DNA of 64,000 nucleotides from Eledone cirrhosa (lineage: Eukaryota): NCBI GenBank assembly GCA_964016885.1, contig OZ024750.1, forward strand, positions 11,532,001 through 11,596,000, written 5' to 3'. Below, in pieces: positions 38,661 through 43,040 of the stretch (position 1 is its first letter; every line of letters begins with the position of its first letter). The notes under the pieces were generated by a model that saw nothing but the letters and a program-made list of their open reading frames with translations, was not told the origin of the DNA and did not search any database. The position numbers and the translations under genes are program-made.

Positions 38661-41093
38661 TGAAAATTGAAACCGCGCGGTAAGGGTAAATATAGCAAGT
38701 ACAGTAAACTTTTAAAAATTTATTTAAAAACTTTTTCTCTATTTGCTAAACCTTGATTATATATATATATATATATATATATATTTATATATACAGTTTT
38801 ATTACTGTGTGTGAGGTGGTGTTTTCTTCTCAGGTCTGGAAATATGTCAGCGCTATAAGAATACAGAGTTATTTATACATTTAATAGAAATAAAAGTTTG
38901 GTAATAATAATTAAAGAACTGTAAATGGTAAATGAAGAAATTCTCTGGAATCCTTTCCTCTTTCTCTTTTGCCCTCTCTTTCTTTCCTTTTTATTGCCCC
39001 CTCCTCCTCTTCTTTACTTTTTATTGCTCCCCTCCTCCCCTTCTTTCTTTTTTATTTCCCCCTCCTCCCCTTTACTTTTTATTGCTCCCCCTCCTCCCCT
39101 TTACTTTTTATTGCTCCCCTCCTCCCCTTCTTTCTTTTTTATTTCCCCCTCCTCCCCTTTACTTTTTATTGCTCCCCCTCCTCCCCTTTACTTTTTATTG
39201 CTCCCCTCCTCCCCTTCTTTTCTTTTTATTGCCTCCCCTCCTCCCCTTTCATTTTTTTTCTTCATATTTTTTGTAATTCTTAGATTTTTTACATGTTCTT
39301 TGTTTACACAGAATTGTCAGCGTCTCTATCTCCTCTCACTCCCTCTCTCTCTCTCTCTTTCTCCTCCCCCTCTCGCAGTCCCTTTCTTTCTCTCCCTCTC
39401 ACTTCTACACTCTCTCCCTATCTCTAACACACATTCTCCTCTCACTCTCCCTCTCCCTCCTTCTCTCTCTCCCCCTCTCTCTAACACACATAGTTTCCTC
39501 TCACTCTCTCTCTCTCCATCTCTCCTAATTCATTTCGTGCCTAACAAGTAAACACATAAAGGAAATCAGATACACACACACACACATATACATACATACA
39601 CGCAAACACACACATATTCATACATACACGCAAACACACACACACACACACACATATTCATACATACACGCAAACACACACACACACACACACATATATA
39701 TACACGCATACATATATATACACATACATAGACGCAAACACACACACATATACATACATACACGCAAACACACACACACACATACATACATACAAACACA
39801 CACACATGTATATATACACGCACATAGACGCAAACACACACACACACACACATACATACATACACGCACATACACACACACACATATACATACATACATA
39901 CACGCAAACACACACTCACATATATATATATTAACACGCATACATATATATACACATACATAGACGCAAACACACACACACACATATACATACATACAGG
40001 CAAACACACACATATATACACGCATACATATATACACACATATATGCAGGCAAACACACACACATACATAGACGCGAACACACACACACACACACACACA
40101 CACACATGCACATACATATACATACATACACGCAAACACACATACACACACACACACATATATATATATATACACATACACAACAGTTTCATTGTACCGA
40201 TATCAGAAATGTAACTGATGACAACTTTACTGAAAGCTGTCATCAAAAGCAATGATAACTACAACTTTAGAAGTTGTTTCCTAGGTGACGGAGAATGTGT
40301 GTGTGTGTGTGTGTGTGTGTGTGTGTCTCTGTATGTGTGTGTCTCTCTATCTGTGTGTGTGTGTATCTGTGTCTGTGGCTCTGTATGTGTGTGTGATCAG
40401 CTGTGTACACACGTGTATATGTTGATGTTTGAGGTCGTGAAGTATGAAATTTGTAGAAATCTGTTTGTTTTTTTTCTACAAATTTCTACAAATTTCATAC
40501 TTGACGACCCAATATATTGTTGCTGTTGTTCTTTAACCCCAGGTCAGACCTGGTCAAATAAGTTATGATGATCAAAGACATTCCAGGCCGTGATCATCCA
40601 CCCGTCTGTTTATATAAATCGTAAACTACATTGTTCTATGTAGCCTTCCTTTTCTTGAAGACAGCATGCTGTGATTTAAGAGATTTAAGACATGGCTATC
40701 TAGGACTACAGTATTCTATGTGTCTTTTTTTATTATGACCGTAGGGCGTGATTTGAGTGAGATATGGCTATTATATTTAGCAGGCCAAATAACCGCGTGT
40801 AGGTGCCCTCAGAAGTTCGTCCTTTGTTGATATATGTGATAGTATTTCTGTGTGTACATGTGTATGTTGTTGTTGTTGTTGTTGCTGTTGTTTATACGTG
40901 ACACTTGTCATGACATGTGTATATGTAGAAGGGAAGGCAGGTCTCTATATTTGTCTGTAATGATGGAGGATTTGGTTGTGATGGTTGTGTCTGTATTTGA
41001 GTGTGTGTGTATATATATATATATATATATATATATATATATATATTTTATAGAAGGAGCTTCTACAGGACTAGTACTGTTTCATTTAGATGA

Positions 41094-41140
41094 CTTCCTG
41101 AAGATTTCATCTGAATGAAACAGTACTAGTCCTGTAGAAG
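41094..41140 (+). ncRNA. Putative type I hammerhead ribozyme, family B
   Basis: cttc-CTGAAGA-t-ttc-atct-gaa-t-GAAA-cag-tactagtc-ctg-TA-gaag, within a palindrome at ~41045-41155. Confidence 0.65.
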
Positions 41141-41402
41141 CTCCTTCTATAAAATAAATTTTTTTTACTCTGCCATGTATTGAGTACCTTACTTACTGTG
41201 GTTATCCCCGACTCAACCCGGGACCTACGTATATATATATATATATATATATATATATATATTGGAAAGTGAGGTTTTTTTTACAAAATGAAAAATAACC
41301 GAGGTGTCCTACACGAGTGAAAGTATAAAGAAAGAGAGATGAAATCGAAAATGCAAATGGAGTCTTATTTTTAAAAAAAATATATATATTTATTTGGTTC
41401 CT

Positions 41403-41711
41403 TGAACCATCCGAGGCGTTGGCTCCAACTTTATCACCACGGTAATTCCAACAAACTTCAAATATTCCACCAGTTCCTCGGTAACTGTGTACCAATAATC
41501 CACTCTGTACATTCCAGATGTGAACACATTTATCAAAGGATCCACTTGCTAAATATTTTCCATCTGGACTAAAAGCTACACTATAGACAGGCTCTTGATG
41601 CTTTGCTAGTGTGTGGATACAAGAACCTTGCTCAACATCCCATAACCGAACTGTTGAGTCAAAACTTGCACTAGCCAATATTAATGGGGAAGAATTAGAG
41701 TTGTTAGTGCC
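41403..41711 (-). pseudogene. TBL1XR1: Intronless fragment of TBL1X/TBL1XR1/ebi (C-terminal WD40 repeats, 103 codons)
   Basis: [72 protein letters not shown]. No flanking AG/GT splice sites; terminal VxVLDLRK is missing. Confidence 0.9.
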
Positions 41712-42456
41712 GAGGAACTGGTGGAATATTTGAAGTTTGTTGGAATTACCGTGGTGATAAAGTTGGGGCCAGCGCCTCGGATGGTTCAAGGAACCAAATA
41801 AATATATATATTTAAAAAAAAAATAAGACTCCAGTTGCATTTTCGATTTCATCTCTTTTTCTTTATATATATATAACGAAGGAAATGTGGTAAGGAACCA
41901 GGTGGACCATAACGCACCAAAGTACTCAAAACTTGAGGTAGTTAGCCGTCGAAACGGCTTGAGCTCAGCTGTCGGGGTCTTACTGGTTCCTATATATATA
42001 TATATATATATATGCAAAAGTTTTATTTAAGATTGTTGGGTTACAACGAGTAAATATTTTATAACTGATATAAAAGCACTCGACAGGAAGGCATAACATA
42101 TTTTTAATATGATATCCCAGAAATATATATAACGAAATAAATATGGTTTTATAAATATAGTTTCCATTTGTTTAATATCGTATATATATATATATATATA
42201 TATATGTGTGTGTGTGTGTGTGTGTGTGTGTATATGTATCCCGGATTCAATCGGAGGTAACTACAGTAAGGTACTCAATATATAGCAGAGTATACATATT
42301 TAGTATAGAAGTGGTTTCTACGGGACTTCAATATTCTAGGAACTCATCATGATTTCCTTCAAATATATTATATATATATATATATATATATATATATATA
42401 TATATATATATATATATATATATATAAGAACAAAAGATGGTTAAAAGAGTTCCATG

Positions 42457-42527
42457 TATTTTATTATGCGCATTTCAAAAACAAATATCATCATGCAATA
42501 ATATTTGTGTTTTCATCAGATAAAACA
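42457..42527 (-). ncRNA. Type I hammerhead ribozyme, family D
   Basis: Near-identical to 37573-37643. Confidence 0.78.
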
Positions 42528-42749
42528 TGAAGACATGATATGAAGGTTAAAAAACACTTGTTATTGCATGATGATATTTGTTTTTGAAATGCGCATAATA
42601 AAATACATGGAACTCTTTTAACCATCTTGTGTTCTTATATATTATATATACTCCAGTCCTACAAACTGTAGAGTGCTTATTATCTGATATCTGCATTGCT
42701 TTATTGTACTACAATAAAACTCACCTCCTACATATATATATATATATAG

Positions 42750-43040
42750 TAATAATAATAAATTTGAAGACTAAAATCCAGTGAACGTTTCCCCGAACCA
42801 AAGTATCGTCTCCCTGTCTTCCTCCGGTTGCAACGTTTTTGAAATATTCACTTCTGCGTTCACAGATTGACTTTGTTAGTTTCAGAAGATCTCGTTAAGG
42901 GTGAAAGCAGCGATTCTTTGCTTAAACTTTAATCTATTATTTTAATAAATATTTGCTCTACGGTTCTTATATATTTGATATATATTTATCCTTATCGAGC
43001 CCTCTTTGGATTTTAGTCTTCAAATTTATTATTACTATAT
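42750..43040 (+). mobile_element. (TA)n-flanked element, family E, with terminal inverted repeat and degenerate hammerhead
   Basis: aataataaatttgaagactaaaatcca / tggattttagtcttcaaatttattatt; gttt-CaGAAGA-t-ctc..ggg-t-GAAA-gca..tgc-TT-aaac at 42879-42927. Confidence 0.6.

Follow-up and report, generated by a model that had tools for sequence, protein, structure and literature searches.

The stretch analyzed is a window of 64,000 nucleotides of Eledone cirrhosa DNA (contig OZ024750.1, positions 11,532,001 to 11,596,000), and all coordinates below refer to this window. An array of seven units is located at 41047-43037, between two border (TA)n tracts (Table 1). Inspection of the sequence and self-comparison show that the units are strung on (TA)n linkers, with eight TA tracts in total, and bear out the unit order given in the initial annotation of this DNA. 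That annotation had named five unrelated families. Families A to E are confirmed, but a sixth high-copy family had been missed: family G, the non-coding part of the TBL1X unit, recognized by read depth. Moreover, the families are not unrelated, as A to D have a tail motif in common. The array probably consists of stacked, 5'-truncated 3' ends of Hydra-type Penelope-like retrotransposons (Penelope-like elements, PLEs), inserted serially into (TA)n.

Every family has two fixed outer ends and an inner junction that varies between copies. The distal end closes a tail of roughly 60-95 nt. The proximal end is located roughly 15-50 nt past the predicted ribozyme cut site, at a TA-like stretch, and both 3' ends point at the flanking TA. 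An inverted partial duplication had been ascribed to most units. Four of them have one: the two arms overlap in B1, D and the TBL1X/G unit, and E duplicates 31 nt of its distal end. However, units A and C are inverted with arms that do not overlap, as is a copy of C at 7566 (gaps of roughly 18, 13 and 3 nt), and B2 has only a vestige of roughly 17 nt.

Table 1. Features of the (TA)n-linked array and its borders (positions in the 64,000-nt window)
Feature	Position	Strand	Remarks
(TA)n left border	41010-41046	.	from sequence
B1 unit	41047-41229		
B1 short inverted arm, stops at TA-like proximal site	41047-41086	-	
B1 type I hammerhead	41094-41140	+	core CTGAAGAT...TGAAA, stem III ACAG/CTGT, predicted cut after 41136
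B1 3' end and tail	41141-41229	+	ACTC...GAGTAC hairpin at 41167-41188
(TA)n linker TA33	41230-41262	.	
TBL1X unit	41263-41863		
Family G 3' end, high copy	41263-41402	-	from read depth; no hammerhead, no tail-motif match
TBL1X/TBL1XR1 intron-less coding fragment, last codons DGS	41403-41709	-	exon junctions 41670/41671 and 41504/41505
TBL1X-G inverted arm	41710-41863	+	TBL1X 41710-41788, G 41789-41863; stops at TA-like site within G
(TA)n linker TA12	41864-41875	.	
C unit	41876-41990		
C tail, inverted	41876-41942	-	
C 3' half of probable hammerhead (GAAA, stem III, GTC) to proximal site	41943-41990	+	no overlap with tail arm
(TA)n linker TA23	41991-42013	.	
A unit	42014-42180		
A tail, inverted	42014-42085	-	
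A hammerhead 3' part to proximal site	42087-42180	+	first core lost; intact in copy at 7433-7498
(TA)n(TG)n linker TA25+TG27	42181-42231	.	
B2, decayed hammerhead	42232-42362	-	tail hairpin at 42270-42291
(TA)n linker TA58	42363-42426	.	
D unit	42427-42731		
D short arm, complete type I hammerhead at 42458-42527	42427-42561	-	palindromic stem III ATGCGCAT
D long arm and tail	42562-42731	+	hairpin at 42650-42677
(TA)n linker TA17	42732-42748	.	
E unit	42749-43035		
E, 31-nt inverted copy of own 3' terminus	42750-42780	-	
E long arm	42781-43037	+	hammerhead 42878-42928, one core change; tail stem GCTC...GAGC, longer
(TA)n right border TA11	43036-43046	.	

Rfam has no match at its gathering threshold in the whole window, and its 54 weak matches in 40400-43700 include no hammerhead. 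The microRNA matches of Rfam were rejected, as they reflect hairpins only. With a custom type I hammerhead descriptor, relaxed after the first run and after the table in PMC8557442, the window has 10 matches with an exact core and 12 with one core change, and each of 10 shuffles has none. A stricter version of the descriptor gives seven matches. In the array, the hammerhead is complete in B1 (41098, plus strand) and D (42519, minus strand), and in E (42883, plus strand) it is complete with one core change, CAGAAGA. Family A has the 3' half in the array and a complete hammerhead in a copy at 7441 (plus strand). The hammerhead of B2 is degenerate, and the descriptor finds none in the TBL1X unit. 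A U.U core pair, in which U follows A9 and U precedes G12, is present in families B, E and F (5 matches compared to 0.30 expected). The family B hammerhead has 82% of cells paired over seven copies. The hammerheads of different families could not be aligned by MAFFT.

Further hammerhead-related sequences are present elsewhere in the window. Ends of other families bearing hammerheads are located at 19838-19934 (minus strand), 38600-38757 (plus strand) and 37915-37960 (minus strand). The first two continue into TA or TA/GA tracts, and the third is of the classic minimal type (GAAACGTC), with no TA alongside. The segments 26440-26610 and 27006-27084 (plus strand) have CTGAYGAAGGACTA without GAAA; both stop at (TA)n and are possibly decayed ends of a further family. 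A repeat family at 49790-50109 and 8203-8365 has CTGATGA...GAAAC with no hammerhead stems, and a tail-motif match at 49901 lies upstream. At 14394-14429, an 11-nt tandem of the hammerhead core is located at a family B fold-back junction, which suggests stutter of the reverse transcriptase (RT) at the inversion point. A family D fold-back at 37335-37767 has near-identical arms and two complete hammerheads, and a SINE-like (short interspersed nuclear element) repeat separates it from its left TA tract.

The tail motif of families A to D is a hairpin, RCTC...GAGYRC, just past the proximal site (ACTC-N8-20-GAGTRCY). The pattern, derived from these four families themselves, has 14 matches in the window compared to 0.83 expected, and 11 of them are A to D copies. 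The other three are at 3961, 46239 and 49901. Among six consensus ends of Craig et al., as far as given in the available part of that work, the hairpin is clear by eye in Hydra-2_Amil and Hydra-2_Ajap, a variant of it is found in Hydra-1_Crog and Hydra-1_Amil, and it is absent in the remaining two, where the consensus stops roughly 40 nt past the cut site. The word 'hairpin' occurs 0 times in the accessible main text of PMC8557442. No tail hairpin common to different phyla was found in the literature searched, with Repbase entries and Arkhipova 2006 outside that search. The possibility that the tails are the N-terminus of an open reading frame (ORF) was rejected, as the C and B peptides have no protein relatives and Hydra-type hammerheads lie after the ORF.

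The units are closely associated with TA. Outside the array, 12 of 14 copies touch TA, compared to 1 of 16 copies of a control repeat that we take to be SINE-like (Fisher p=1.7e-5) and 10% of random window segments. The enrichment next to (TA)n anticipated in the initial annotation is therefore seen within the window. Four sequencing runs were compared with 41047-42180 (B1, TBL1X/G, C and A). In run X1, possibly the source sample, the TBL1X part has a summed depth of 6-36, compared to roughly 1e5 to 3.5e6 for B, G, C and A; such summed depths indicate high copy and give no copy count. In run X5, from another organism, B is abundant whereas little of A, C and G is present, a difference that suggests recent expansions. 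The raw reads of X21, from another individual, give a consensus from the end of C into (TA)n (5143 reads, agreement 0.68). They also contain the joints A-TA-C (194 reads, 4 starts), A-TA-G (70 reads, 1 start) and G-TA-A (71 reads, 2 starts); those of the A-TA-C type are perhaps alleles of the locus at 7.5 kb. This locus, at 7179-7696, is a second mini-array, with A then C on TA linkers, and it holds the only complete family A hammerhead. The order is A-C here and C-A in the main array, and the units therefore arrived separately.

These features are similar to those of the Hydra clade, as described in the available text of PMC8557442. There, the clade has type I hammerheads near the 3' end, often with the U.U core (14 of the 25 Hydra families in its table), insertion into (TA)n (26 of the 27 families listed), 5'-truncated inverted copies, a member in Octopus bimaculoides (Hydra-1_Obim) and, in consensus ends, the tail hairpin. 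In the window, the predicted type I hammerhead near the 3' end is present in A, B and D, and in E with one change, and the layout is likewise 5'-truncated, with an inverted copy and a tail at one end only. The main pattern, Penelope-type ends that target TA and re-use one microsatellite, is already described biology of the Hydra clade. There are differences, however, in that none of the window families is Hydra-1_Obim, only short ends are found here, and several very-high-copy families are stacked in one tract.

The autonomous partner with RT and GIY-YIG called for in the initial annotation was not found among the 91 frames of the window, and clade membership therefore rests on RNA features. 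The protein traits of the Hydra clade are RWK and DKT motifs in the RT, a C-terminal GIY-YIG domain without CCHH, and a CxCX5C linker (PMC8557442, available text). An independent scan for the U.U-type pattern in metagenome contigs listed 120 of roughly 1200 loci, and 21 of those listed form stems I and II. Among the matches listed with at least 150 nt downstream, a hairpin follows in 7 of 18 stem-forming loci and 0 of 94 unstructured ones, and (TA)4 follows in 8 of 18 and 2 of 94. In most of the matches listed, TA begins either 37-46 nt or roughly 110-130 nt past the cut site, other distances being 79 and 162 nt, and a related RT/endonuclease-type frame is found at 11 of 21 stem-forming loci (three being the queries) compared to 1 of 99. 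In the contigs L094, L095 and L109, the frame comes first, followed by the hammerhead and then the hairpin. The CxCX5C linker is present in all four long frames checked on contigs of other organisms, of which one matches Pfam GIY-YIG and three match nothing; the L042 frame has no Pfam or PDB match. The proposal that TA-targeting Penelope-type ends re-use one microsatellite is thus supported by TA adjacency, by the X21 joints, and by the frames linked to hammerhead and hairpin. In one of the contigs of the scan (L067:120-950), an ORF remnant is inverted relative to the hammerhead arm.

The ends could belong instead to another hammerhead-bearing Penelope clade (Neptune/Nematis), or be short non-autonomous derivatives, ORF-less from the start and dependent on an enzyme of the Hydra type. 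A microsatellite bias has been hypothesized for Neptune as well (PMC8557442, available text), all 21 window copies are 45-600 nt long with none extending to an ORF, and the family peptides have no protein relatives. Against another clade, both the tail hairpin and the U.U core agree with the consensus ends of Hydra elements (the hairpin comparison covering Hydra ends alone), and the same hammerhead type accompanies CxCX5C frames in other organisms. Neptune has a CX2-5CxxC linker and a CCHH endonuclease. Against non-autonomous derivatives, the 5' ends vary, as expected of truncation. We consider these possibilities improbable. Naiad PLEs were rejected, as they are without canonical hammerheads in the available text of PMC8557442, and the window families have hammerheads.

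A miniature inverted-repeat transposable element (MITE) or a tandem retrozyme targeting TA would also be short and at high copy, and E has 31-nt terminal inverted repeats between TA. Retrozymes have type I hammerheads, and the non-LTR (long terminal repeat) retrozymes in the accessible part of bioRxiv 10.64898/2026.07.22.740005 are, similar to the window units, short non-coding hammerhead repeats from PLE ends. However, those are head-to-tail tandems, and the window units are head-to-head singles split by TA. The array has no head-to-tail monomers, which disfavors the retrozyme option of the initial annotation. Ordinary MITEs, named there as the refuting case, find no support either, as copies differ in their inversion point. 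Every A, B, C and D copy has its own inner junction, which contradicts a MITE for these families, and there are one-armed copies at 34354, 47660 and 52829. For E, the hammerhead fold and a one-armed copy argue against a MITE. This explanation is therefore very improbable.

Several observations weigh against assignment to Hydra-type ends. Copies of other repeats touch TA in 9 of 29 cases. No RT or endonuclease was found in the 91 window frames or by tblastn, A to G are not linked to an ORF of their own, and the published Hydra-1_Obim hammerhead has 0 matches in the window. None of the seven window copies of family C has a complete hammerhead, only the 3' half. The U.U pair of B and E is replaced by A-U in families A and D, and the stems of family B show no compensatory change over seven copies. 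Family G has neither hammerhead nor tail motif in the 140 nt present, and its fit to the other families is in layout and copy number. The tail folds are of ordinary stability (z of -0.1 to -2.1). The hairpin starts with an A-U pair in six window rows and with G-C in seven outside rows, but this covariation is one event counted repeatedly, in rows selected by motif. In other work, O. vulgaris has 31 recently active Penelope-like families, with nothing on TA arrays in the accessible text (PMC13282606), and the accessible text of PMC12602865 has nothing on targets.

For the insertion of the units, we favor double priming from both DNA ends as the probable mechanism, by analogy with Poseidon PAc of Anolis. 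The GIY-YIG endonuclease of the element would cut both strands of (TA)n, and RT would start at two fixed sites in the RNA, the end of the tail and a site 15-50 nt after the ribozyme cut site. The second site would be just before the RCTC...GAGYRC hairpin, which probably positions the enzyme. Each DNA end would prime one cDNA, and the two cDNAs would stop early and join head to head. An overlap between them would give a fold-back (B1, D and G), and no overlap a plain inversion (A and C). Each insertion would leave TA on both sides, and the tract would stay a target. Double priming at two sites would account for the fixed outer ends, the one-sided tail, and the presence of both overlapping and non-overlapping arms.

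In the available text on Poseidon (PMC11167929), both strands of an AT-rich target are cut and extended, two internal RT start sites bound the tail, ribozyme cleavage is unnecessary, and a dimer is predicted. In comparison, the tail is 30-40 nt in Poseidon and 60-95 nt here, the Poseidon hammerhead overlaps the start of the ORF whereas Hydra-type ones lie after the ORF, and the start sites of Poseidon are in an AC-rich loop. Two points weigh against double priming here: the proximal sites are TA-like (1-8 nt), whereas the Poseidon start sites have no homology to the target, and the non-overlapping arms could be produced by later deletion within a palindrome. Inverted units with non-overlapping arms, or double priming, were not found for Penelope in the literature searched, most subscription papers being outside that search.

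The inverted arms could instead be formed by self-priming (snap-back) at palindromes, the model published for Adineta Penelope (PMC3846280, accessible text), with the middles of A and C deleted later. Junctions are found on palindromes at 27449-27478 (at GAGCTC), 27211-27290 and 37335-37767, and private variants are common to both arms of B1. However, the proximal site is where the short arms stop in each of A, B, C, D and G, and the tail arm stops roughly 3-18 nt from this site in all three non-overlapping units (41876, 42014 and 7566). The non-overlapping layout recurs in another organism (L015:160-360), where it is like that of window units A and C. Self-priming requires later deletions for both A and C, and we consider it unlikely. 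It bears on the mechanism alone and leaves the identity of the units untouched.

Twin priming of L1, said to have been described by Ostertag and Kazazian in 2001, reportedly gives head-to-head inversions in which two primers act on one RNA and the gap or overlap is small. In the window units, the second start site is fixed for each family, and overlaps reach at least 150 nt. The minimal PLE hammerheads of metazoans are also similar to the window units (PMC4209133, accessible text). They are in dispersed, truncated PLEs, with opposite-strand pairs 100-700 bp apart, a palindromic stem III and an extra base before stem II. However, A, B, D and E lack the G10.1-C11.1 pair of those hammerheads, and no TA landing-pad arrays are described in that text.

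The coding piece of the TBL1X unit was identified as TBL1X/TBL1XR1 by a homologue search with a short query, a first query having returned mostly WD40 repeat proteins. The best named matches are from Octopus and Argonauta (94 of 100 residues), and other molluscan, annelid and unnamed sequences have 84-90, which points to an octopod as the probable host. DNA contigs of another organism (organism B) match 41505-41672 and 41420-41506 and then pass into other sequence, with overlaps of two bases as expected of AG acceptors. These contigs break at 41505 and 41672, where the window is continuous, and two introns are therefore missing here. The exon lengths of 166 and 102 nt presumably fit those of human TBL1XR1, for which the literature search gave no confirmation. 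As in a processed retrocopy, introns are lost, but the native 3' untranslated region and poly(A) of a LINE-type copy are absent and the sequence passes into repeat G at 41403. Among 120 homologue models, 21 diverge right after DGS, the point of the join to G (vertebrates, insects and one bivalve), and 12 of these do so as V-S read-through.

On balance, we lean slightly towards the TBL1X unit being a piece of spliced host mRNA, which was spliced into a G copy and then retrotransposed via the two start sites of G. The penultimate TBL1X coding exon would have been spliced into the G copy, and the chimera would have been inserted by the same route as the other units. The G part continues the frame of TBL1X as far as the TA. 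An X1 contig (41645-41739) contains the fold-back junction, which is therefore not an assembly artefact of that sample. Against this reading, we infer the intron after DGS in host TBL1X from homologues, and run X4, whose contig of 2794 nt matches 41403-41674 unbroken with four differences and diverges at 41403, is presumed to be RNA.

Alternatively, the join of TBL1X and G could be due to a template jump of the RT, which would have left ribozyme-cut G RNA at its 5' end and continued on a TBL1X splicing intermediate, or to chance recombination. The start of G could be the strand after a hammerhead cut, and the reads gave no G sequence upstream of the join. However, the join is at a probable exon end, where a random break would fall roughly 1 time in 100, and free 5'-exon intermediates are rare, which counts against a template jump. 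Such a join is doubtful. The TBL1X arms differ from each other at two A/G positions, for which A-to-I editing was rejected, as the arm with G encodes a conserved Ser. This Ser is found in 117 of 117 homologues with the motif, and the other arm is therefore derived. At 41699, the X1 contig has G and the window A; G would restore a Pro codon found in Octopus TBL1X, and the difference is an allele or an assembly error.

For the spliced copy preferred here, a precedent is the Adineta vaga gene in the accessible text of PMC3846280, where PLE ends mobilized host coding sequence in trans and an inverted terminal repeat is present. In this known gene capture by PLEs, however, introns are kept and the gene lies between two direct repeats, whereas two introns are gone from the TBL1X piece, which is joined to one 3' end only. 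No spliced retrocopies made by PLEs were found by title or abstract among the 20 of 46 matching papers listed, nor, in the literature searched, a spliced TBL1X retrocopy fused at a probable exon end to the end of a repeat.

As a tentative idea, which we hold to be possible and short of probable, Hydra-type ends may be a portable signal for retrotransposition, in which the hairpin, conserved between animal phyla, sets two RT starts, both cut ends of (TA)n prime at the same time, and any host mRNA spliced to the end is retrocopied into microsatellites. If so, octopods have a source of spliced chimeric gene copies that is independent of LINEs (long interspersed nuclear elements), and TA landing pads that renew themselves, with several families at very high copy. 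As Penelope gene capture keeps introns, a spliced host retrocopy would add a route of gene duplication in cephalopods. With the tail hairpin, there is a concrete candidate for what the Penelope enzyme recognizes in the RNA, and inversions without overlap distinguish between two models of how the inverted ends of Penelope, long unexplained, are formed. The main use of these observations is in annotation, as the short ends are missed by Rfam and are MITE-like in appearance.

The units had also been proposed as a source of (TA)n expansion. A large share is not borne out, as 22 of the 67 TA loci, with 741 of the 4994 TA bases (15%), adjoin units of A to G, and none of the six TA arrays above 300 nt does. 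The TA tracts at units are longer (median of 32 compared to 17 nt, p=0.009), but a larger-target effect would give the same result, and the difference does not show which is the cause. The eight TA tracts of the array total 216 nt, and local regrowth after splitting is therefore plausible.

Two small families of hairpin repeats are located beside the array, with copies at 40433-40511 and 27785-27857 for one and at 43041-43129 and 36486-36565 for the other. Some copies touch TA, and no hammerhead was seen in them. A frame at 4876-5406 (minus strand), with no Pfam match, resembles, as judged by eye from a motif, the remnant of a hAT-type transposase. Large compound TA arrays are found at 32957-33492, 54427-54833 and 57852-60693. 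Their periodic interruptions are of a higher order, they contain no ends of elements, and together they hold more than 40% of the TA bases in the window.

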